From Solirubrobacterales bacterium (GTDB lineage Bacteria > Actinomycetota > Thermoleophilia > Solirubrobacterales > Solirubrobacteraceae): DNA of 64,000 nt. A program made the position numbers and the translations under genes. Of this stretch, positions 28,401-42,015 are shown piece by piece (position 1 is the first letter of the stretch; each line of letters starts with the position of its first letter). The notes under the pieces are model-generated. The model saw nothing but the letters and a program-made list of their open reading frames with translations. It was not told the origin of the DNA and searched no databases. Where the stretch lies: NCBI GenBank assembly GCA_019241635.1, contig JAFAWR010000300.1, forward strand, positions 363-64,362, in the 5' to 3' direction.

Positions 28401-28585
28401 GGTCCGATGCACGAATCAGCCGCGGCGAGCGTGTAGCTCCCGGCGATCGACGGCTGCGCCTTCTCGTTGCCGCCCTTGTCGACAACGAAGATCACGACCG
28501 CGACCCCAATCACGGCGATGATCGCGTAGAAGGTGATCAGACGCGTGGCCAGCTTGCCACGCGGCATTTCCTTCTGTCCCGGCAT
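25409..28585 (-). CDS. CPA2-type cation/H+ antiporter with duplicated extracytoplasmic N-terminal domain and USP-like C-terminus
   Basis: GQPRVMGEVIAG..LGPS, MFLVGLE, SITAFPVLARIL, AAVDDV, GK, LMNTRGLTELIVL motifs; C-term ILVPFGG.EHD. Confidence 0.9.
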   Translation of the reverse strand: MPGQKEMPRGKLATRLITFYAIIAVIGVAVVIFVVDKGGNEKAQPSIAGSYTLAAADSCIGPVPKPAGGVPLPSTAPTQVAAAGPSFNLLQSGQFVNFTNNQNTLGGQLRLSGTALAGNSHRLTGTVNCVAGGSQKLDAIATPGAKAAIKGTLGGAPFSASFSAAPPAPGAAAPRTPPNIQGTYALSPASTCFGSSFSIHGTGSSAQLYSSSSALLGSVAYSSKTSGVFGDVKCIKGGTARLTASANDLQLQKVTVIPLQVAAPVPSTASQAKPALTTPSGLSPAGEKFTATKQRADANKLIAAIFLAIAIVLIVARVFGVIAVKVGQPRVMGEVIAGLCLGPSLLGAFSANLQATFFPSDTLSALGVVANLGLIFYMFLVGLEVDRGSLKGKVAQATAISNTSVAVPMLLGIAVALPLYKLVGPDKKFVAFALFMGVAMSITAFPVLARILAERRMIKRPLGSLAIACAAVDDVTAWFLIALAVTIASSGTFGDVAKTIGEATAYTLVMVLIVRRVVARMATAFDEVGRMPGAWFAAIVIGVLLSAYVTEEINIAFIFGGFVFGMIMPRHARLNEEITRRIDDFVVTLLLPVFFVYTGLRTNVGLLDRPELWLLTLLLIAVAILGKLAGAAIAARVTGYSWKESSVIGTLMNTRGLTELIVLNLALDVGAISNTLFAMLVIMAVVTTLMAGPLLKLLDPRNEYGRGIEDEFADAALAAVQAHPELPVPERSILVAPQTDGAIGQLVALAEPLARSEPARELIIARLVQPPRGAGAGVRGGLQSENLALERASRAINDLRERLALEGVVARGVALTSSSPGSDLAHIVDHEPVDLVLTDGRRRLVGEGVPLGEVGELMEHAVSDVAVLVAKEGDPIELGPDKPILVPFGGAEHDWAALELGSWLASNTGAPLRLLGAAGQSDEGKSVTRLLADAGLLVQQATGIATEPLVVAGGREGIVAAAEQAGLLVLGLSERWRKEGLGPTRSAIAKAAPAPVLFVRRGSRSGLFAPKENVTQFKWSMAGGPGMLGLSPRSVSGAPAPAAPGGGPSSDEPPISVS

Positions 28586-28812
28586 CTAAGCCCCCTTTAG
28601 GCTCGGCGTATGTGATGTCCCCCCGGCCGGCGCAAACCCCCGCCTCGGCCTGGTCGCGCGGAAAAGTAGCCCATTGCGGGCAACTCCGCATCCGGCACGT
28701 GCCATCGAACTGCATCCGTAAAGGACCGCAATTTTGTTCCGGAGGGCGCCGCGATCCGAGTTCGGCCGTCTCCGTGGGAGTTCGCGCTGTACCACGAGGC
28801 CTAGGTTGGTTT

Positions 28813-28916
28813 ACGCGGGGTCGTCGTCCCCTTCGCCCGTCCCTGCGTCGCCTCTCCGATCGTGGCGTCGCCGCGGGTTCCGCGAGGACGGGGCGAAGCG
28901 GATCGACGACCCGCGT
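28813..28916. repeat. Long imperfect inverted repeat
   Basis: ACGCGGGGTCGTCG..CTTCGCCCGTCC pairs with GGACGGGGCGAAG..CGACGACCCGCGT. Confidence 0.7.
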
Positions 28917-29010
28917 TGTTTGCACGTGTCGTGGTGCGCGGCTCCCACGGGGCGGATGCACGGCGCCGCGGCTTGGGAAAAGCCGGCGAGGGTCGCGAGG
29001 GTGCGGAAGT

Positions 29011-29106
29011 CGCCAAACCTCGTCCTCCGCCCGCCGTCCATGCCACATAAGCGTCTTGGAGGCGCTTATGTGGCCGAGGTTCCGGCGGGCGCGGGAGCTT
29101 TGGCGC
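29011..29106. repeat. Long imperfect inverted repeat with 15-bp core stem
   Basis: GCCACATAAGCGTCT-TGG-AGGCGCTTATGTGGC (29042-29074), extended by CGCCCGCCG/CGGCGGGCG and CGCCAAA/TTTGGCG. Confidence 0.7.
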
Positions 29107-29207
29107 GTTAGGCACCCCGCTCACTTTGCCCCGTGCGCTGACGCGCGCGGCCGGGACGGCAGACGCTCGGCGGCAGGAGATCGCTCGTGTCGCCTGTCGC
29201 CTGAGGT

Positions 29208-30365
29208 CTACAGCCCGAGCATTGAGGCGATGCGTACGCGCTGCGTCTCGTTGGTGCCCGAGTAGATCGGGGCACCGATCGCGTCGCGCAGGCCCTTCTC
29301 GAGCCCGTACTCGCGCGTGTAGCCGCGCGCGCCGAAGATCTGGATCGCCGACAGCGCCGAGGCGACGTTGGCCTCGCTGGTGATCAGCTTGGCCATCGAG
29401 ATCTCGGTGGTCACGCTGCGTCCCCGATTGAACCGCCGGGCGGTGTCGTAGAGGTGCTTGCGCGAGTTCTCCAGGCCGATCTTCATGTCGACGATCTTGC
29501 CGGCCACGTACTGGTTGGAGCCGATCGAGGCGCCGAAGGCCTGCCGGGTCTTGGCCCACTTGATGCAGCGCTCCATGCGCTCCTCCATCTCCCCGACCAT
29601 CATCATGAAGATGCACAGGATCTCGTAATTCATGACGTGCTCGAGGATGAAGAAGCCGGCCCCGGGCTTGCCGAGCATGTTCTCCTTGGGCACGCGACAG
29701 TCGCGGAACTCGAGCTCGCAGAACGGGCAGGTGTTCAGCCCGAGCTTCTCGATCGGCTCGCCCACGTGGAACCCGGACGTGTCGGTTGGGACCAGGAACG
29801 CGGTGATGCCGGCGGCCCCGCCCGCGGTGCCGGTCTTGGCGTACACGGTGATGATGTCGGCCAGCGGGCCGCTGGTGATCCAGATCTTCTTGCCGTCAAG
29901 GATGTACTCGTCGCCGTCCTCGGTGGCGGTGGTGATCATCGCCGTCGCGTCCGAGCCGGCGTTCGGCTCGGAGATCGCATGGGCACTGATGATCTCGCCG
30001 TCGATGAGCCGCGACAGATAGCGGTCCTTGAGATCGTCGGATCCGAACTTCTGGAGCGGGATCGCGGCGCTCACGACCTGCGTGGCCAGCGCGAACAGAA
30101 GCCCGGTGTCGCGGCATCCGTAGCCGAGGTTCTCGAGTACGTAGACCAGCGTGAGCACGTCGTGGCCCAGACCGCCCCATTGCTCGGCGAACGGGATCCG
30201 GATCACCCCGCTGTCACGGATCAGCTGCCACTTGTCGCGGTTGAAGCGGTTTGCCGCGTCATCCTCGAGATGACCGGCGTTGAGCGCCTCGAAGTGCTGA
30301 CTCAGTGACTTACGAAGCGATTTCTGCTCGTCGGTCCATTCGCCGGTTGGGGCGGTCAGTGCCAT
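29208..30365 (-). CDS. Carrier-protein-dependent acyl-CoA dehydrogenase-like enzyme (PltE/RedW prolyl-PCP dehydrogenase type)
   Basis: AHAISEPNAGSDA, GKKIWITSGP, IFGARGY, IYSGT (not IYEGT); operonic with A-domain and carrier protein. Confidence 0.85.
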   Translation of the reverse strand: MALTAPTGEWTDEQKSLRKSLSQHFEALNAGHLEDDAANRFNRDKWQLIRDSGVIRIPFAEQWGGLGHDVLTLVYVLENLGYGCRDTGLLFALATQVVSAAIPLQKFGSDDLKDRYLSRLIDGEIISAHAISEPNAGSDATAMITTATEDGDEYILDGKKIWITSGPLADIITVYAKTGTAGGAAGITAFLVPTDTSGFHVGEPIEKLGLNTCPFCELEFRDCRVPKENMLGKPGAGFFILEHVMNYEILCIFMMMVGEMEERMERCIKWAKTRQAFGASIGSNQYVAGKIVDMKIGLENSRKHLYDTARRFNRGRSVTTEISMAKLITSEANVASALSAIQIFGARGYTREYGLEKGLRDAIGAPIYSGTNETQRVRIASMLGL

Positions 30366-30382: not shown

Positions 30383-30781
30383 TCAGGTCCCTACGACTTC
30401 CCCGTACACGGACGGGTGGACGCCGGACTCGCTGATGCGGTGCGCTTCGTCGCCGGTCAGCGCCGGCGTGAACATGCAGACCAGGCGGAGGTCCTCGTCC
30501 TCACCTCCGAGCAGCCAGTGGGTGTCGTGCTCATCGAGCGCGTACATCCGGCCGGGGAAGATCTCGTGCTCGGTGCCGTCCATCGCGATGACCTTGCCGC
30601 GGCCCTCGATGCAGTAGCACGCCTCGAGATGGTTGGAGTACTCGATCAGCGTCTTGGTGCCCTTGCGCACGGTCGTGTCGGTGAGCGTGTAGCCCATGCC
30701 GTCGGCCTCGAGCAGGAAGCGCCGGCTCAGACCATTGCCCCATTCGACCGTCTTCACGTCCTCCAGGTCCCGAATGATCAT
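30383..30781 (-). CDS. ectC: Solitary ectoine synthase-like cupin
   Basis: MIIR, SRR.LL..DGMG, Y.NHLEACYCI.G, YALD.HD.H, C.F.P.LTG.E.H; no ectA/ectB in the window. Confidence 0.88.
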   Translation of the reverse strand: MIIRDLEDVKTVEWGNGLSRRFLLEADGMGYTLTDTTVRKGTKTLIEYSNHLEACYCIEGRGKVIAMDGTEHEIFPGRMYALDEHDTHWLLGGEDEDLRLVCMFTPALTGDEAHRISESGVHPSVYGEVVGT

Positions 30782-30802: not shown

Positions 30803-31615
30803 CTAAATGGCTGGGATCTGTCCCAGCTCTCCGAGTAGCCCCCGGAAGTCTTCGACCACGTCGCGCCCGGCCTCGCGCGCGGCGGTGACCCGCGCCACGC
30901 AGGTCGAGCCGACGATCGCGGCGTCGGCCCCCACCGCGCCCAGACCGTCGATGTGGCTCTTGTTCTTGACGCCGAAGCCGACCGCGATCGGCACTTCGGT
31001 GCGCGCCCGCAGCGTCTCCATCACCGGGACGAGCGCGCTGTGGTCCGGCGGACCCACGGTGCCGCTTCGGCCGTACGCGGCGACCAGGTAGATGTAGGCC
31101 GAGCCGTGGTCGGCCGCCTCGTGGAGCACCGGCTCCTCCGAGGTGGCGTAGCAGGTGGTGACGATCGGGAGATCGACGGTGCCCGCCGCCTCGTAGTACT
31201 CGGGCTTGAGCCGAGGTGGGAGCCCGTGCACGAGCAGCCCGTCGGCGCCCGACGCCTGTACGCGCTCAAGGAACTCCTTCATCGGCGTGCCCTTGATCGA
31301 GTAGCTCCAGTCGGCGAGCAGCGCGATCTTCAGATGGCTCAGCTCGGGGCGGACGCGACCGATGAAGGCGAGAACCGCCTCGCGATCGATGCCGTCCTGA
31401 AGTGCGCGGCTGGCCGAGGCGCGGATGACCGGCCCGTCGCTGGCCGAGTTCGGGAACGGGATGGCCAGCTCCAGGCAGTCCACGCGAGCCTCGTCAAGCA
31501 TGTGTACGAGCGAGCGGAACGTGTCCAGCGGCGGGTCGCCAGCGTTCAGGAACAGCGCCAAGCCGGGCCGCCCCGGGCGGGCGTCGGCGAAAAAGCGCGT
31601 CGCCGAGGCGGTCAT
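30803..31615 (-). CDS. trpA: Divergent tryptophan synthase alpha-like (indole-glycerol-phosphate lyase-like) protein
   Basis: AGDP, LELAIPF....SDGPVI (catalytic Glu and Asp kept), GADGLLV, VGFGV, AIVGS; no trpB. Confidence 0.88.
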   Translation of the reverse strand: MTASATRFFADARPGRPGLALFLNAGDPPLDTFRSLVHMLDEARVDCLELAIPFPNSASDGPVIRASASRALQDGIDREAVLAFIGRVRPELSHLKIALLADWSYSIKGTPMKEFLERVQASGADGLLVHGLPPRLKPEYYEAAGTVDLPIVTTCYATSEEPVLHEAADHGSAYIYLVAAYGRSGTVGPPDHSALVPVMETLRARTEVPIAVGFGVKNKSHIDGLGAVGADAAIVGSTCVARVTAAREAGRDVVEDFRGLLGELGQIPAI

Positions 31616-32661
31616 GCCACCACGGCCGCCTGCTTGCCGTGCGCCCGCATGCGGTCGATCAGCCGCGCAGGCTCGCGGGCGCTCATCGCATCGGCGGCCA
31701 TCCGGAGTCCCTCGCTCCAGTCGGAGGCGACTTCGCAGTTGATGGCCAGCGCGGCCGCGTTCAGCCTGATGCTCTCGATCGCGCCGATCGGGCCGTCCCC
31801 GCCGAGCAGGGCGAGGAAGTGATCGACGGTCTGATCGAGCTCGGGGACCGGAAGCAGGTCGTCGAACGGGCGCTCGCTCAGACCGAGCTCGCTCGGGCGT
31901 ACGAGGGACTCTTCGCCCCGGACGCTGTCGTACACGTGGCAGTCGACGACGCTCATCAGCTCATCGACCCCGACGTCGTTCCACACCACCCAGTAGTCCT
32001 TGCTCGAATCCTCGGAGACCAGCGACCTGAAGGTCGGCAACACGCTGTGATCCGACACCCCGGTGATCTGGAGTGACACCGGCACGGCGGCCAGGAACGG
32101 GCCGATCAGGTTGAAGAAGCGACCCACGGTCTTCATGTCGAAGGGCAGGATCTGCCGCGCCAGCATGCGCAGCTCCTTGGGGTAGACGAACGGGCCGGCG
32201 CAGGCCATCCCGAACGTGTCGAGCATCTCCTCGGTCTGCTCGTAGGAGCTGGTCTGCCGGATGCCGAGACGATCGAGCAGGTCGACCGAGCCGGTCCGGC
32301 TGGCGTACGCGCGCGAGCCGGTCTTGATCACGCGGGCCCCCATCGCCGCGGCCACGAACGCGGACGCGGTCGAGAGGTTGAACGTGCTCGGGCCGCCGCC
32401 GGTTCCCACGATGTTCACCGTGGTGCGGGTCGGCGGCCCGGGCTGGGGATTGCGGTCCCTTAGCGACTGCAGGAGCGTGCTGACCGAGGTGCCGTCAGGC
32501 ATGCGTGTCGTGAGCGACGACAGCACGGCCAGCGCTTCGCCCGGATGCAGGCTCTTGTCGCCCAGTCGGTCCCAGAAGTCACCCCATACCGCTTCGGAGA
32601 TCGGGTAGCGCTGAGTTACCAGCGCAGCCAGGGCTTCCGATGGCGGAGGCTTAGAGGTCAT
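31612..32661 (-). CDS. trpD: Divergent anthranilate phosphoribosyltransferase-like protein
   Basis: GTGGG..TFNLSTA.AFVAAA.G, GS.D.L..LG, FNLIGP, GVDE, NAAA; KHGN replaced by KTGS. Confidence 0.88.
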   Translation of the reverse strand: MTSKPPPSEALAALVTQRYPISEAVWGDFWDRLGDKSLHPGEALAVLSSLTTRMPDGTSVSTLLQSLRDRNPQPGPPTRTTVNIVGTGGGPSTFNLSTASAFVAAAMGARVIKTGSRAYASRTGSVDLLDRLGIRQTSSYEQTEEMLDTFGMACAGPFVYPKELRMLARQILPFDMKTVGRFFNLIGPFLAAVPVSLQITGVSDHSVLPTFRSLVSEDSSKDYWVVWNDVGVDELMSVVDCHVYDSVRGEESLVRPSELGLSERPFDDLLPVPELDQTVDHFLALLGGDGPIGAIESIRLNAAALAINCEVASDWSEGLRMAADAMSAREPARLIDRMRAHGKQAAVVA

Positions 32662-32712: not shown

Positions 32713-32976
32713 TCACTCGGCATGCGCGGTCTCCCGCGCCTGGTCGACGTAGGCCTTGATCGCCGCGACGGTCCGGAAGCTGTCGGGCCCGAGCTCGGAG
32801 TCGTCGACGCCGATGTCGAACTCGTCTTCCAGCCAGGCCACGACCTTGAGCAGCCCGAGGCTGTCCACGACGCCGCCGGTCAGCAGATCGAAGTCGTCAT
32901 CGAGATCCTCGACCGGGACGTCCGGCATGAACTCCTCGACGATGAACGCCTTGATCTTCTGAGTGGTCTCATCCAT
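32713..32976 (-). CDS. Stand-alone peptidyl/acyl carrier protein (PltL/RedO-like)
   Basis: Acidic, 87 aa, LL.GGVVDSLGLL phosphopantetheine Ser motif; GGAG RBS. Confidence 0.92.
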   Translation of the reverse strand: MDETTQKIKAFIVEEFMPDVPVEDLDDDFDLLTGGVVDSLGLLKVVAWLEDEFDIGVDDSELGPDSFRTVAAIKAYVDQARETAHAE

Positions 32977-34513
32977 TGGCACGACTCCTCTCTAGTGCGG
33001 CCGCGACTGCCTTGCGGTCGACCTTTCCGGTTGATGTTTTAGGTAGGGGCTCGGTGACGATCTCGATCATCGAAGGCATCTCGGTGCGCGCGAGACGTGT
33101 GGCGCAGTGCTGGCGCAGGATCAGGCTGTTGAGCTTGGCGTCGACCTCGCGCCGTACGTGCGCATGCAGGCGGGCGCCGGCCAGCTCGTCGGGCACTGCG
33201 ATGACCGCGACCTCGACCACCGCCGGATGCTCCTGGATGGCCTGCTCGACCACCTGGGTCGAAACCCGCACGCCCCGCACCTTGACGTAGAAGTCCGAGC
33301 GGCCCTCGAGCGTGAGCGTCCCGTCCTCGTGGCGGCGCACGATGTCGCCCGACTTGTAGTAGATGCGTCCGTCGCCGCCGTTCTCGGAGAGCGTGACGAA
33401 CTTCTCGTCGTTGAGCGACGCCTTGAGGTAGCCCCGGGTCTGGAACGGCGTCCAGACCACGAACTCGCCGGTGCCGGCGCCCTCGAGCGCGGTGCCGTCC
33501 TCCTGTTGGAGGCGGGCGATCACGCCGGGGATCGGCTGGCCGACCGGGACGTGGCTCGGCACGTTGCCATCGGCCAGTCCGACGAACTCGTGAATCAGGC
33601 TGTCGTTCGTCTCGGTGCAGCCGTAGAGGTTGTAGAAGCGGGCGTTCGGGAACAGCGTCGGGAGCTCGGCCAGCGAGCTGGCCGGGATCTTGTCCCCGGT
33701 GCTGATCACGTGCCTGACGCTCGGGAACGTTCGCCAATCCTCCCGGTGGACGTCGATCAGCAGGCGGTAGAGCATCGGCACGGCCTGGAGCACGTTGACC
33801 CGGTTGTCGTTGACGAGCTCGGCCAGGTACGCCCCCTGGGTCGCGCGGTCCTGGTCGACCATGGCGACGGTGCCGCCGTGCTTGAGCGTGGTCCAGATGT
33901 CGAGCAGGCACAGGTCGAAGTTGAGCGGCGCGTAGTTCGCCACCACGGTGCCCGCTTCGATCTCGAACTGCTCGGCCGCCCAGTCGGTGAACGCGTCGAC
34001 GCCGCTCGCGGTCAGCGGGACGATCTTGGGCAGCCCGGTGGAGCCCGACGTCGTGAGCATGAATGTCACGTCCTCGCCGCCGCCGACCGGCGGCCACTCG
34101 ATCCCTGCAGCATCGGGTGCGGCGCGCGCGTCATCGACCAGCGCGCGCAGGCTGGCCGCGCTCTCGCTGCGCGGTCCATGCGGGGAGAGAACCTGGCTGG
34201 TGCCAGCCTGAGCAAACAGCTGCGCCAACGTCTCGGGCGCGAGCTCGACCGACGGCAGCAGGAACGACCGGCCGGCGCGGAGACAGGCCAGGATCAGCCC
34301 GATCGCCTCGGGCGACTTCTTGGCCCGGATGCCGACCGGCCGGTCTTCGCGGAGCCTGGCGTCCTGTAGCTCGGCGAAGGACGAACCAGCCAGCTGCTGC
34401 AGCTCGCGATAAGAGACGGGGGCGCCGTCCCAGATGAGCGCGGGTGCGTCCGGCTGGCGCCGGACCTGCTCGGCGAAGTGGTCGGCCAGCGACCGGATCG
34501 CGGTCTGGCTCAT
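32969..34513 (-). CDS. Stand-alone amino-acid adenylation enzyme (PltF/RedM-like, altered pocket)
   Basis: TSGSTGLPK, APLNFDL, NLYGCTETN, YKSGD, GR.D..VKVRG.R, LPKTSTGKVDR; ATGA overlap with the trpC-like gene. Confidence 0.92.
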   Translation of the reverse strand: MSQTAIRSLADHFAEQVRRQPDAPALIWDGAPVSYRELQQLAGSSFAELQDARLREDRPVGIRAKKSPEAIGLILACLRAGRSFLLPSVELAPETLAQLFAQAGTSQVLSPHGPRSESAASLRALVDDARAAPDAAGIEWPPVGGGEDVTFMLTTSGSTGLPKIVPLTASGVDAFTDWAAEQFEIEAGTVVANYAPLNFDLCLLDIWTTLKHGGTVAMVDQDRATQGAYLAELVNDNRVNVLQAVPMLYRLLIDVHREDWRTFPSVRHVISTGDKIPASSLAELPTLFPNARFYNLYGCTETNDSLIHEFVGLADGNVPSHVPVGQPIPGVIARLQQEDGTALEGAGTGEFVVWTPFQTRGYLKASLNDEKFVTLSENGGDGRIYYKSGDIVRRHEDGTLTLEGRSDFYVKVRGVRVSTQVVEQAIQEHPAVVEVAVIAVPDELAGARLHAHVRREVDAKLNSLILRQHCATRLARTEMPSMIEIVTEPLPKTSTGKVDRKAVAAALERSRANG

Positions 34514-35235
34514 GACGACGCTCCCGGGGTGACCGGCGCGCGCAACTCGGCGCGGTGGCGTTCGAAGTCCTGCACCCAGCCGGCAATGCTGTTGGCCCGC
34601 AGCAGGCCGGTCCCGATCAACAGCCCCTTGAACCCGGCATCGATGAGCTCGGCGGCGATTTGCGGATCGAGGATCGCGCTGGCGCTCACCGGGCACGGGG
34701 TGCCGGCGGCGACCGTGGCCTCGAGCAGCGAGCGACTCGTGTCGATGTCGCCCGGCTCGCGCTCGCGCGTGTTGATGTCCTTGTTGTTGACCGCGATGAT
34801 GCAGTCCTCCGGGTGGATCACGGTGTCGAGCTCGGCCCGGTCCACGACCTCGACGAACGGGGTCACGCCGTGCTCGAGCGCAAGTTCGATCAGATGCTGG
34901 AAGGTCTTGGCGGGGAGGATCTTCGCGGTCAGCAGGACCGCCGACGCGCCCATCTCCCTGGCCGCCACGATCTGCTTCTCGCGCGTGATGAAGTCCTTCT
35001 TGAGCAGCGGCTTCTCGGTCAGCCCGGCCACTTCTTCGAGCATCGCGTCGCTGCCGCCGAACCATCGCCCGGTGACCACCGAGATGCAGGGCGCGCCGAC
35101 CTCCACGTACTGGCCGACGATCTCCTCGATCGTGCGCTCGCCCATCAGCTCGGCACCCTCGCCGTCGGAGCGCTTGACCTCCATGATGATCGGCAGGCGC
35201 CCGGCGAGCAGCGCGTCGATGAACGGGCTAGGCAT
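34510..35235 (-). CDS. trpC: Divergent indole-3-glycerol-phosphate synthase-like protein
   Basis: IIMEVKR, ISVVT...F.GS, LLKKDFI, GASAVLL, VEV, VNNKDI; short N-terminus; SESGI replaced by SASAI. Confidence 0.88.
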   Translation of the reverse strand: MPSPFIDALLAGRLPIIMEVKRSDGEGAELMGERTIEEIVGQYVEVGAPCISVVTGRWFGGSDAMLEEVAGLTEKPLLKKDFITREKQIVAAREMGASAVLLTAKILPAKTFQHLIELALEHGVTPFVEVVDRAELDTVIHPEDCIIAVNNKDINTREREPGDIDTSRSLLEATVAAGTPCPVSASAILDPQIAAELIDAGFKGLLIGTGLLRANSIAGWVQDFERHRAELRAPVTPGASS

Positions 35236-35965
35236 CGGGAGTGTCCCTCCAGGTGCGCGTGATCGCTCGCACCCGGTCGGGCGAGATCGCGCCGCCGCTT
35301 CCCTCGCGCGCGTTCGTGTCGACGTCGATTCCCAGGAACAGGGGGTGCGCGGCGAGCGCCGCATAGTCTGCGCGGTTGGCTTCGGAGATTCCGCCGGCGA
35401 GTAGGAACGGCCGCGACAACCGCCCGAGCAGCGGGGCCACGACGCTCGGATCGAGCGCCTGCCCGGTGCTGCCCACCCGGCCGTCCTCGGTGACCACGTC
35501 GAACAGGAAGACGTCGACGCCCGCCTTCTCATAGGAGCCGATCAGCGACGCCTCCACGCACTCCGCGCCGCGCACGTGGAGGACCTTGATCACGCGCACG
35601 TCGTCGCTAATCGCCTTGACCTTGCGAACCGTGCCGGGGGTGGGATAGCCGTGGAGCTGGATCCACTGCACGGGAGTACCGTCGAGCGTGGTTCGAAGCT
35701 CGTCCGCATCCTTGGCGAACGTCACCAGCACCGGTGTCAGCTGCCTGGCCGCGCCGTCGGCGGCAAGTGCCCGCCACCGATCGCGCTCGAGATCGTGGGG
35801 GCCGCCCGGGACACCCCACCACAGGCCCACGAAGTCGACGCGCTCGCCGGCCAGCACGCCGAGCTCGGCGGGATCGACGATCCCGCACACCTTGACGCGC
35901 GTCCCGTGGCCGGCCTCGCCCAGCTGCCGATCCTGCCCGTGGTGGCTCCCGCTTAGCAAAGCCAC
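35228..35965 (-). CDS. trpF: Divergent phosphoribosylanthranilate isomerase-like protein
   Basis: VKVCG (Cys), IQLHG, FLFD (Asp), G.TG, LAGGI..AN, GIDV; GTG start with AAGGGGG RBS. Confidence 0.85.
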   Translation of the reverse strand: MALLSGSHHGQDRQLGEAGHGTRVKVCGIVDPAELGVLAGERVDFVGLWWGVPGGPHDLERDRWRALAADGAARQLTPVLVTFAKDADELRTTLDGTPVQWIQLHGYPTPGTVRKVKAISDDVRVIKVLHVRGAECVEASLIGSYEKAGVDVFLFDVVTEDGRVGSTGQALDPSVVAPLLGRLSRPFLLAGGISEANRADYAALAAHPLFLGIDVDTNAREGSGGAISPDRVRAITRTWRDTPDA

Positions 35966-36160: not shown

Positions 36161-37456
36161 CTAGAACGCGCCCGCTCCCGAGATGCCGGGCGGCAGCGTC
36201 GCCGGCGTCGCCTGGATCTCGGTCAGGCTTCCGCCGGACCCAACCCGGTACACGTCGATCTGGCTATCGATCCCCAGACCGGCCGGCGGCGGGGCCGACA
36301 GCGCCGAGCTCGGGTCGATCACGTACAGGTACTTGTCGTCGTTGCTGAGCGCCATGTCGGCCGGGAAGCCGGGCGCCGTACTGGCTTGGTGGCTGAGCGT
36401 CATCTTGCCGTTGCCGGCCACCGACAGGCTGGATACCGCACCCACGCCGCCGGTCGGTGCCGTCGAGCCGAGCGTGTTGGTCACGAACGCCCGGCGGCCG
36501 TTCTTGGTCACGATCAGCCAGCAGGCTGCGCGCCCGCCCGTCTTCACGTTGCTGACGAGCGTGAGCTTGCCCGTGTTCGACACCTTGTAGGTGGCCGCGG
36601 TACCGGTGAACTGCGTGAAGTCCCCAACCTGGGGCATGGCGCCGTTCGCCGTATTCACCTGGCCGGCGTTGCTGATCAGGAAGTAGCGGCCGACCGCCGA
36701 GAACCCGAACGGGTTGTCGATCCCCGGCGTGGCGGTTGCCCGCGCCGGTCCGGCCGAGCCGTCACGCGCGATCACGAACGTGTCGATCTCGCCGTACTTG
36801 CGCGGAAGCGCTCGCTGGGTGACGGCCAGCACGTCGCCGTTGGCCGAGAACCCGATGCCCGCCGGCGCGCCGTTCTTGTCCTTCTTGCCCTTCGGCGTGA
36901 CCGCCTTGAGCTTGCGGTCAGAGCCGGCGATCGGCGTCAGCTTGCCCGTGCTCGAGAAGTGCCAGCCGTAAATGCTGTAGCTCAACCCGTTGAGCACGTA
37001 GAGCAGGTGGCCGCTCGTGGCCAGGCTGACCGGCAGCTTCCCGTGCGTCGACACGCGATCCACCTTCTTCAGGCCACTGGCCGTGGCCTCGAACGAGGTG
37101 ACCGTGTTGTCACCCGCGTTGACCACGAACAGCAACTTCCCGTCGGGCGTCAGGTCGACCGAGCCCTGGGAGTCGACGACCGGCAGACCGAACGTCGGTG
37201 TCCCCGGGGGCGTCGGCTGTCCCTTTCCGCCGGTTGCCACGTTCCCGAGCAGCGAGATCGTGCCGTTCGCGGCCCGGTTATAGACGAGCACGGTGTTGCC
37301 CGCCGGGTTGTTGGTCTGGGTATAGAACCGATGCGGTACGCCCGACTTCTTTCCGGCGCCCTGCTTGGCGGCGTCAGCCGCCCATGGTGCGAGCAACGCA
37401 ACAGCGACCAGCAACAACCCCATCAGCCGCGCGATCCTCACGGCATTCCGTCCCAT
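36161..37456 (-). CDS. Secreted lactonase-family 7-bladed beta-propeller protein
   Basis: Signal peptide; YTQTN...GN.V, LFVVNAGDNTVTSF, PFGF, AACW, D.ALS.D.KYLYV. Confidence 0.85.
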   Translation of the reverse strand: MGRNAVRIARLMGLLLVAVALLAPWAADAAKQGAGKKSGVPHRFYTQTNNPAGNTVLVYNRAANGTISLLGNVATGGKGQPTPPGTPTFGLPVVDSQGSVDLTPDGKLLFVVNAGDNTVTSFEATASGLKKVDRVSTHGKLPVSLATSGHLLYVLNGLSYSIYGWHFSSTGKLTPIAGSDRKLKAVTPKGKKDKNGAPAGIGFSANGDVLAVTQRALPRKYGEIDTFVIARDGSAGPARATATPGIDNPFGFSAVGRYFLISNAGQVNTANGAMPQVGDFTQFTGTAATYKVSNTGKLTLVSNVKTGGRAACWLIVTKNGRRAFVTNTLGSTAPTGGVGAVSSLSVAGNGKMTLSHQASTAPGFPADMALSNDDKYLYVIDPSSALSAPPPAGLGIDSQIDVYRVGSGGSLTEIQATPATLPPGISGAGAF

Positions 37457-40995: not shown

Positions 40996-42015
40996 ATGGA
41001 AGCCAGCGACGCACGGGGCGCATCCGGATCTCTGCCGATCGTCACCGGCAAGAAGCTCATGCTGTTCGCCGGGCGGGCCAATCCCGAGCTTGCCGCGGCG
41101 ATCGCGCGTAGGCTCGGAATCGAGCTCGGCCACATCACGCTGAAGACGTTCTCGGCCGGCGAGGTGTACTGCCGGTTCGATGAATCGGTGCGCGGCGCCG
41201 ACGTGTTCATCGTGCAACCGACCTGCGCCAACCCGGAGACCGGGGTCAGCGCCAACGACGCGATGATGGAGCTGCTCGTGATGGTCGACGCCGCGGTCGG
41301 CGCCTCGGCCCACCGGGTGATCGCGGTGATGCCCTGGTACGGCTACTCGCGCCAGGACAAGAAGTCAGCCCTGCGCGAGCCGATCACCGCCCGGCTGGTC
41401 GCCCAGCTGCTCGAGACCGCGGGCATCGATCGCATACTCACGCTCGACCTGCACGCCGGCCAGGTCCAGGGCTTCTTCCGTAAGCCGGTCGATCACATGA
41501 CCGCGCTCCTGCTGATCGCCGACTACTTCCGTGAGCTTGAGCTCGACGACCTCGTGGTGGTCGCTCCCGACGTCGGCCGGGTGAAGCTCAACCACAAGTT
41601 CGCCGAGATGGTCGGGGCCGACCTGGCCCTGATGACCAAGGAGCGCCCGGCCCAACAGGTGGCCGAGGTCGGCTACGTGATCGGCGATGTGCGCGGGAAG
41701 ACCGCGGTGATCCTCGACGACATCATCGACACCGCCGGCACCCTGACCGCAGCCGGCCAGACCGTGCTCGACGAGGGCGCCCGGCGGGTGTTCGCCGCCT
41801 GCACGCACCCGGTGTTCTCGGGTCCGGCCTACGAGCGGCTTGCCTCCTCGCCGTTCGAGCAGGTGGTGGTCACCGACACGATCCCGCTGCGCGAGGGCGC
41901 GCCCGAGAAGGTCGTCGTCCTGTCGTGCGCTTCGCTGCTGGCCGACACGATCCGTCAGATCTTCACCGACGGTTCGGTCTCCGCCGTTTTCGGTGGCGAG
42001 AACCAACTCTTCTAG
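40996..42015 (+). CDS. prs: Ribose-phosphate pyrophosphokinase (PRPP synthetase)
   Basis: FSAGEV, SVRGADVF, YGYSRQDKK, DLHAGQVQGFF, VAPDVG, LDDIIDTAGT, VVTDTIP. Confidence 0.95.
   Translation: MEASDARGASGSLPIVTGKKLMLFAGRANPELAAAIARRLGIELGHITLKTFSAGEVYCRFDESVRGADVFIVQPTCANPETGVSANDAMMELLVMVDAAVGASAHRVIAVMPWYGYSRQDKKSALREPITARLVAQLLETAGIDRILTLDLHAGQVQGFFRKPVDHMTALLLIADYFRELELDDLVVVAPDVGRVKLNHKFAEMVGADLALMTKERPAQQVAEVGYVIGDVRGKTAVILDDIIDTAGTLTAAGQTVLDEGARRVFAACTHPVFSGPAYERLASSPFEQVVVTDTIPLREGAPEKVVVLSCASLLADTIRQIFTDGSVSAVFGGENQLF

Follow-up and report, generated by a model that had tools for sequence, protein, structure and literature searches.

A stand-alone adenylation enzyme in a Solirubrobacterales gene cluster carries an altered proline-type pocket and probably activates a glutamine-derived cyclic amidine

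The closest described relatives of the system considered here belong to showdomycin and kosinostatin biosynthesis. The system itself is a gene cluster around a stand-alone nonribosomal peptide synthetase (NRPS) adenylation enzyme (A enzyme), and it lies in a 64,000-nucleotide stretch of DNA, the window, from a Solirubrobacterales bacterium (GenBank assembly GCA_019241635.1, contig JAFAWR010000300.1, positions 363 to 64,362). For showdomycin, made by Streptomyces showdoensis, the summary of Ren et al. (2021) in PMC8724604 states that SdmE cyclises glutamine to 2-amino-1-pyrroline-5-carboxylate, which is identical to ADPC, or 5-amino-3,4-dihydro-2H-pyrrole-2-carboxylate. According to the same summary, SdmC activates ADPC and SdmD carries the product, cyclisation thus preceding activation; oxidation and hydrolysis then yield 2-amino-1H-pyrrole-5-carboxylate, which is ribosylated by SdmA (PMC8724604). 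For kosinostatin, from Micromonospora sp. TP-A0468, the summary of Ma et al. (2013) in PMC7918784 assigns the loading of an acid and the making of a pyrrole to the kstB genes, and the conversion of the pyrrole with phosphoribosyl pyrophosphate (PRPP) into a pyrrolopyrrole to the kstC genes. Nocardiopsis alkaliphila is reported to hold a near-complete kst cluster (PMC7918784). The EctC homolog Athv28 converts glutamine into ADPC in vitro (PMC8627960), and Halomonas EctC does so weakly, the equilibrium on free glutamine lying far towards glutamine (PMC5924519). On the best reading, the product of the window gene is a stand-alone (type II) NRPS adenylation enzyme of the same, already known kind as SdmC and KstB1, which probably adenylates ADPC made from glutamine by an EctC-like neighbour and loads it onto the adjacent carrier for oxidation to an aminopyrrole.

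The A gene and the pocket segments of its product are the following.

32969..34513, minus strand: stand-alone NRPS adenylation enzyme, 514 aa, code DLLQITLDSK (translated open reading frame (ORF), PF00501 and PF13193, alignment to the L-prolyl-AMP ligase PltF, AlphaFold 2 (AF2) model)
33893..33919, minus strand: A4 motif FDLCLLDIW with code positions 235 (D200), 236 (L201) and 239 (L204) (PltF alignment; D200 invariant)
33776..33796, minus strand: NVLQAVP with code position 278 (Q243; Tyr in PltF) (PltF alignment)
33599..33631, minus strand: A5-region motif NLYGCTETNDS, residues 295-305, with code positions 322 (L296), 330 (D304) and 331 (S305)

The ATG of the gene shares bases with the TGA of the upstream TrpC-like gene (ATGA), and GGGAG lies 9 nt upstream of the start. 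In a profile search, the 514-aa protein matched PF00501 (178.6 bits, 2.2e-52) and PF13193 (53.2 bits, 5.9e-14); the core motifs LTTSGSTGLPK, FDLCLLDIW, NLYGCTE and GKVDR place it among the NRPS adenylation domains of the ANL superfamily. The AF2 model, built on 38 diverse relatives, reached a predicted local distance difference test (pLDDT) value of 87.4 and a predicted template-modelling (pTM) score of 0.80; it fits solved stand-alone A domains, including PltF, with TM-scores of 0.75-0.77 and matches A-domain structures at E ~1e-40. In the 38-sequence alignment, in which mean column identity is 49%, N295, G298 and T300-D304 do not vary, and S305 hardly does. No database record matched the 514-aa sequence exactly. 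Only 2 of 120 sampled Solirubrobacteraceae genomes gave a match at E <=1e-100, both weaker than the window gene, which argues that the A gene is accessory.

Specificity codes are a means of annotating A domains. The code of the window protein was read from a HMMER alignment of residues 150-514 to the PltF chain 6o6e_B; the residue pairing comes from HMMER itself, and the ten code columns are those that we take to be the GrsA motif positions. The alignment pairs FDLCLLD with FDLSVLD, LQAVP with WYSVP, ISTGD with LFAGE, NLYGCTETNDS with NLFGPTETNVC, and GKVDR with GKVDR (window protein first). The resulting codes are DLLYLALVCK for PltF and DLLQITLDSK for the window protein (D200, L201, L204, Q243, I270, T272, L296, D304, S305 and K497). 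In particular, Asp235, Leu236, Leu239, Leu322 and Lys517 are shared, and five of the ten positions are changed: Tyr278Gln, Leu299Ile, Ala301Thr, Val330Asp and Cys331Ser. The window protein does not carry the proline code DLLYLALVCK of the L-prolyl-AMP ligases of the PltF/RedM type. An earlier note on this DNA had given the PltF code and derived the window code by hand; the alignment returned both strings unaltered rather than the standard proline code for the window protein. The motifs quoted in that note are all present in the translation, within NVLQAVP, VISTGD and NLYGCTETNDS, as are FDLCLLDIW and PKTSTGKVDR. Its description of a proline scaffold in which hydrophobic positions have become Gln, Thr, Asp or Ser agrees with the five shared and five changed positions.

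PltF is the top single-domain PDB match in the search with residues 150-514 (7.9e-45). LgrA, the nearest structure in a full-length PDB search (3e-69), was rejected since that score added two A domains; a glycine-type reading was dropped because PltF ranks first when residues 150-514 are used alone. An exhaustive representative search returned only giant multi-module NRPSs with summed scores and gave no information on near relatives, and a literature search for the PltF code string returned no paper.

The altered code is conserved among both close and distant homologs. The 120 closest homolog clusters (72-92% identity) come mostly from soil metagenomes, the named ones being Solirubrobacteraceae metagenome-assembled genomes (MAGs), and all 120 carry D-L-[LFV]-Q-[ILV]-T-[VILG]-D-S-K. 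The motif N-x-[YF]-G-x-T-E-T-N-D was then scanned over 185,579 species genomes, which gave at least 120 loci, each with its 8 kb context; the counts below refer to the 120 listed loci, denoted by L and a number. Hosts include Streptomyces, Amycolatopsis, Kitasatospora, Actinoplanes, Nocardiopsis, Micromonospora and Solirubrobacterales MAGs and, beyond the actinomycetes, Azospirillum, Methylococcaceae, Halomonadaceae and a Melainabacteria MAG; S. showdoensis and Micromonospora TP-A0468 are not among the matches listed. A stand-alone A homolog is present in every listed locus, with 28-89% identity to the window protein (28-58% for most of the distant relatives), and DLLQxTxDSK, in which the search pattern itself fixes Asp330, is found in 101 of the 112 complete codes. 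Since the code is kept by the 120 closest homologs and by these 101 distant ones, it is more than chance. The same scan with Pro at position 325, as in PltF, gave no match in the 185,579 species genomes; therefore, the Asp330 pocket always occurs without Pro325.

A very divergent branch stands apart in Methylococcaceae and Desulfosarcinaceae MAGs (L013, L055 and L108). It has the variant code DLFQ[LI]A[VI]DTK and, where measured (L013 and L055), about 28% identity; the gene order is different (in L013, EctC-dehydrogenase-A-TrpD-TrpC-TrpF), and a tblastn search found no peptidyl carrier protein (PCP).

In the window, the A gene belongs to a tightly packed minus-strand operon whose genes overlap or are separated by gaps of <=51 nt. 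Its order is TrpF-like, TrpC-like, A, PCP, TrpD-like, TrpA-like, EctC-like and acyl-CoA-dehydrogenase-like; the neighbours of the A gene are listed here in that order.

35228..35965, minus strand: TrpF-like (phosphoribosylanthranilate-isomerase-like) enzyme (PF00697; NF002295 71 bits, cut-off 216)
34510..35235, minus strand: TrpC-like (indole-3-glycerol-phosphate-synthase-like) enzyme (PF00218; NF001377 140 bits, cut-off 260)
32713..32982, minus strand: PCP carrier protein, 89 aa, with the phosphopantetheine serine motif GGVVDSL (PF00550), overlapping the A gene by 14 nt
31612..32661, minus strand: divergent TrpD-like phosphoribosyltransferase (PF00591 120 bits; TIGR01245 146 bits, cut-off 199)
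30803..31615, minus strand: TrpA-like lyase; the operon holds no TrpB partner (PF00290 141 bits)
30383..30781, minus strand: EctC-like cupin, proposed glutamine cyclase making ADPC (PF06339 125.7 bits; NF009806 137.5 bits, cut-off 128)
29208..30365, minus strand: acyl-CoA-dehydrogenase-fold flavoenzyme of the prolyl-PCP dehydrogenase kind (Pfam ACAD N, M and C domains)

The start of the TrpC-like gene was set at the ATG from which it shares 8 nt with the TrpF-like gene, the arrangement also seen in the relative L011. The best NCBIfam matches of the dehydrogenase are PigA (366 bits) and RedW (327 bits), both under their cut-offs. Searches of the genome, which is 75% complete, turned up no EctC homolog besides this EctC-like gene. 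The operon thus holds the combination known from PltF and RedM, a stand-alone A enzyme beside a PCP and a flavoenzyme of the prolyl-PCP dehydrogenase type, and it joins to this the EctC-like cyclase, giving the linkage expected of an enzyme of the SdmC/KstB1 type. The same linkage recurs across the listed loci: within 8 kb of the A gene, an EctC-like gene is found in 97 of 120, a PCP in 95 and a PigA/RedW-like dehydrogenase in 89; most of the others are truncated at the edge of the locus. Eight loci have no EctC-, dehydrogenase- or TrpD/TrpA-like gene; in those inspected, the A gene sits at the edge of the locus, so that the cassette side is out of view.

Three genomic contexts can be distinguished. 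In the first, found in eight loci, the cassette is accompanied by a YeiN-like C-glycosynthase (PF04227, 332 bits), and in L016, L075 and L119 the genes form one run of A, PCP, EctC, dehydrogenase, transglutaminase-like and YeiN. The A domains of these eight showdomycin-type clusters carry DLLQxTxDSK and are 42-49% identical to the window protein at full length; L075, trimmed by a contig end, shows 32%. In the second context, TrpD/TrpA-like genes are present as in the window (52 loci); a ketosynthase occurs in 15 of the 120 listed loci. The Nocardiopsis alkaliphila locus (L057) belongs here, with a full cassette, the code DLLQITVDSK and a ketosynthase-alpha/beta pair about 17 kb away on the same contig. 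The pocket is the same in both contexts, since the YeiN-containing L014, L016, L059, L064, L069, L095 and L119 and the kst-type L057 all read DLLQ[MILV]T[IVL]DSK. All other loci hold the cassette alone, in many cases beside a MarR regulator and a transglutaminase-like gene. In 55 of the 120 listed cassettes, of both types, the gene immediately after the dehydrogenase is transglutaminase-like (PF01841) (e.g., L015:5662-6375 and L028:144-917; also L016 and L027), and its product is probably the thioester hydrolase of the pathway. An arylmalonate-decarboxylase-like gene (PF17645) lies beside cassette-only clusters in L038 (2994-3863) and six other loci, and may provide another way to handle the carboxylate.

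When 71 near-full-length A enzymes were placed in a FastTree phylogeny, those of Trp-linked cassettes formed nearly one clade (28 Trp-type and 3 edge-cut rows, support 91) that contains the window protein, and the YeiN-type enzymes a clade of their own. Three Solirubrobacterales MAGs share a group with the window protein, and Azospirillum griseum stands beside this group. Full Trp-linked cassettes outside Actinomycetota were seen in A. griseum (L032) and in a Melainabacteria MAG (L040). As the Azospirillum A enzyme is the nearest relative from outside Solirubrobacterales, this suggests transfer between phyla.

The following pathway is proposed; we infer the substrate, the role of Asp330 and each chemical step from sequence and gene context. 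The EctC-like cupin would cyclodehydrate L-glutamine to the cyclic amidine imino acid ADPC, the A enzyme would convert ADPC with ATP into ADPC-AMP and transfer the acyl group to the phosphopantetheine arm of the 89-aa carrier, and the PigA/RedW-like flavoenzyme would dehydrogenate the ring to carrier-bound 2-aminopyrrole-5-carboxylate. The pocket keeps the proline scaffold, in which Asp235 would serve the ring nitrogen and Lys517 the carboxylate, alongside Leu236, Leu239 and an aliphatic residue at 322; an alpha-imino acid is expected to suit the two charged residues retained. Asp330, flanked by Gln278, Thr301 and Ser331, would pair with the protonated exocyclic amidine. The TrpD/F/C/A paralogs would then treat the aminopyrrole as an anthranilate analogue, probably with PRPP. 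Two ribose carbons would go into a second pyrrole ring, and the product would be a bicyclic amidine of the pyrrolo[2,3-b]pyrrole type, like that of kosinostatin, with both nitrogens of the [2,3-b] amidine on the former amide carbon of glutamine.

The earlier note had proposed an A domain on a PltF scaffold, retuned from proline to a cyclic amidine such as ADPC. Comparative genomics supports this proposal, because PltF is the best single-domain PDB match and superimposes on the model, because the Asp330 pocket almost always adjoins an EctC-like cyclase, a PCP and a PigA/RedW-like dehydrogenase, because YeiN-type clusters, whose genes are those of the showdomycin pathway, share the code, and because Athv28 makes ADPC from glutamine in vitro. 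The contact between Asp330 and the amidinium that the note put forward is a hypothesis. The novelty that it implied for this kind of enzyme was not borne out, SdmC of showdomycin and KstB1 of kosinostatin having already been described.

Several observations weigh against this reading. TIGR01733 (amino acid adenylation domain), the top NCBIfam model of the A enzyme, scores 247.9 bits against a cut-off of 317.4; being the best-scoring model yet under its cut-off, it marks the enzyme as a divergent stand-alone form. The listed loci are mutually related, and their shared linkage could partly reflect shared ancestry. The conservation of Asp330 in these loci is by construction, and it is the positions left free by the search pattern that are informative: Gln278 (118 of 119), Thr301 (115 of 120), Ser331 (117 of 120) and Asp235 (115 of 115). 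Moreover, the likeness to SdmC and KstB1 runs through sdm-like and kst-like clusters and not through the characterised proteins themselves. Finally, the window cassette is of the kosinostatin (Trp-linked) type, and nicotinic acid is the substrate given for the kosinostatin kstB loader in Table 5 of PMC7918784, which summarises Ma et al.; PMC8400222 likewise lists the kosinostatin NRPS unit as incorporating nicotinic acid.

An A enzyme that loads nicotinic acid, with a later ring contraction to the pyrrole, is nevertheless unlikely. Asp235, which binds an alpha-amino or ring nitrogen, is invariant, and nicotinate lacks a group of this sort; in DhbE and MxcE, aryl-acid enzymes that accept nicotinate, the code is the unrelated PLPAQGVVNK (PMC8400222), and the window protein has neither this type of code nor the lack of Asp at 235 that goes with it. 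The nearest solved relative is a proline ligase, and the same code occurs in showdomycin-type clusters, which are fed from glutamine. The adjoining EctC-like cyclase and pyrroline-type dehydrogenase would, in addition, lead straight to an aminopyrrole in which one carbon bears both amidine nitrogens, as it does in the product.

It is also improbable that the A enzyme loads L-glutamine (or glutamate) and that the EctC-like enzyme cyclises it on the carrier, even though the gene set leaves the order of steps free and Gln278 is found in some glutamine codes too. Trapping on the carrier would help against the unfavourable equilibrium of EctC on free glutamine (PMC5924519). However, the scaffold is compact and of the proline type (L236, L239 and aliphatic 322), unlike a pocket of the glutamine type, the substrates of EctC and Athv28 are free amino acids (PMC5924519, PMC8627960), and the showdomycin summary in PMC8724604 puts cyclisation before activation.

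A different EctC product, ectoine or another six-membered cyclic amidine, is very improbable as the substrate. The EctC-like neighbour does exceed the cut-off of the ectoine synthase subfamily model NF009806, and an acidic pocket would suit any cyclic amidinium; on the other side, the genome search (75%-complete genome) found no EctA over its cut-off, the dehydrogenase is of the five-ring (prolyl) type, and the related pathways, as summarised in PMC8724604 and PMC7918784, yield five-membered aminopyrroles. An ordinary prolyl-AMP ligase like PltF or RedM, making pyrrole-2-carboxyl-S-PCP beside an unrelated EctC-like gene, would account for the architecture of A enzyme, PCP and PigA/RedW-like dehydrogenase and for PltF as best PDB match, but is hardly credible given that half of the ten code residues are not those of PltF, a buried Asp among them, that the changed residues are kept from phylum to phylum and go together with EctC-like genes, and that plain pyrrole lacks the amino group needed by the TrpD-like enzyme.

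The trp-like genes of the window were also considered as a housekeeping operon with an insertion. This was rejected: far better-scoring trpD, trpC and trpA lie on contigs C201 and C160 of the same genome (TrpD 280 bits on C201; TrpA 239-249 bits), and three of the four window copies are under NCBIfam cut-offs, so that the window genes are not the housekeeping ones. Two high-scoring trpC/trpA sets were seen, on C201 (5766-9982) and C160 (6113-8877), which could reflect true duplication or contamination of the bin; the MAG is 75% complete with 4.7% contamination.

The following features flank the operon.

36161..37456, minus strand: lactonase-like beta-propeller protein, directly upstream of the operon (PF10282; synteny in L011, L012, L030 and L090, Solirubrobacterales)
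40996..42015, plus strand: PRPP synthetase paralog (PF13793, PF14572 and PF00156), also beside the cassette in L012
42191-43951 and 43983-45734, plus strand: two tandem flavin-adenine-dinucleotide-dependent halogenase-like genes (weak PF04820/PF01494)

The PRPP synthetase paralog likely supplies the co-substrate of the TrpD-like enzyme. The halogenase-like genes give CmlS-like matches far under the cut-off and are conserved near the cassette in L011, L012 and L031. The same nine-gene order recurs in relatives at 72-78% identity, together with the halogenase-like genes and sometimes with a PRPP synthetase nearby. A cyclic-nucleotide (cNMP)-binding patatin gene also lies near the operon. Among the window genes examined, there was no polyketide synthase (PKS) or ketosynthase, condensation domain, thioesterase or sugar gene; a YeiN-like C-glycosynthase is absent from the window operon, and neither the window nor any of five relatives in Solirubrobacterales has the transglutaminase-like hydrolase.

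Beyond the other end of the operon, between the dehydrogenase gene and a Na+/H+ exchanger-Usp gene (window 28416-29616), overlapping ORFs occur on both strands; those at 28416-29048 (minus), 28612-29265 (plus) and 28801-29616 (minus) have no Pfam match. In L012 (15225-17383), a 72%-identical relative, the operon goes on with a PNPOx-cNMP-binding fusion, a flavin reductase and an RraA-like protein where the window has the Na+/H+ exchanger gene, and this flavin reductase would suit the halogenase-like enzymes. In L011 (1-2868), the halogenase-like genes are flanked by UbiD, a flavin-mononucleotide-dependent dehydrogenase and a UbiX-like flavoprotein.

A broader reading of these clusters has two parts, which are held jointly and tentatively, as a possibility on the doubtful side. 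According to the first, all pyrrolopyrrole cassettes start from glutamine-derived ADPC, because of the invariant Asp235/Gln278/Thr301/Asp330/Ser331 pocket and the universal linkage to EctC; kosinostatin would be included, and the published nicotinic-acid origin of its ring would need revision. According to the second, the Solirubrobacteraceae version makes a free, possibly halogenated pyrrolo[2,3-b]pyrrole, because neither a PKS or NRPS partner nor a release hydrolase accompanies it, whereas a PRPP synthetase of its own and two halogenase-like genes do. On this reading, the Trp-like enzymes might even work on the substrate while it is bound to the carrier. To our knowledge, free pyrrolo[2,3-b]pyrroles are a class of small molecules not yet reported from bacteria.

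Independently of this reading, DLLQxTxDSK, together with Cys325 and TETNDS, provides a practical signature for aminopyrrole pathways, an EctC-like cyclase being present in most of the listed loci. Its targets are C-nucleosides of the showdomycin kind, pyrrolopyrroles of the kosinostatin kind and a third, uncharacterised group. The pocket also raises a testable conflict with the nicotinic-acid origin published for the kosinostatin pyrrolopyrrole, and the window shows that a stripped-down version of the cassette, linked to halogenase-like genes, is carried by uncultured Solirubrobacteraceae of soil. Literature searches for an EctC/TrpD cluster or for aminopyrrole biosynthesis returned nothing relevant, and a search for KstB1 returned no paper using that name.

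Compared with the known systems, the window operon shares with PltF (L-prolyl-AMP ligase of pyoluteorin biosynthesis; PDB 6o6e and 7thq) the architecture of stand-alone A enzyme, PCP and flavin dehydrogenase; the two A enzymes are about 26-27% identical in the structural alignment and differ at code positions 278, 299, 301, 330 and 331 and at position 325, which is Pro in PltF and Cys in the A5 region of the window protein. The partners of SdmC, itself a stand-alone A enzyme, are a PCP, a glutamine cyclase of the EctC-like kind, an oxidase and a hydrolase, and the window has the same set of A enzyme, PCP, EctC-like protein and oxidase. However, showdomycin-type clusters contain a YeiN-like C-glycosynthase and a transglutaminase-like hydrolase, whereas the window operon has TrpD/F/C/A paralogs instead. 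In this respect, it resembles the kosinostatin kstB/kstC genes, which have the same eight-gene content (A, PCP, EctC-like, dehydrogenase and TrpD/A/F/C-like), although the pocket of the window protein argues against nicotinic acid, the published substrate of the kst loader. The kosinostatin-type locus of N. alkaliphila has its type II PKS about 17 kb away, whereas the window has a PRPP synthetase and two halogenase-like genes near the same cassette.

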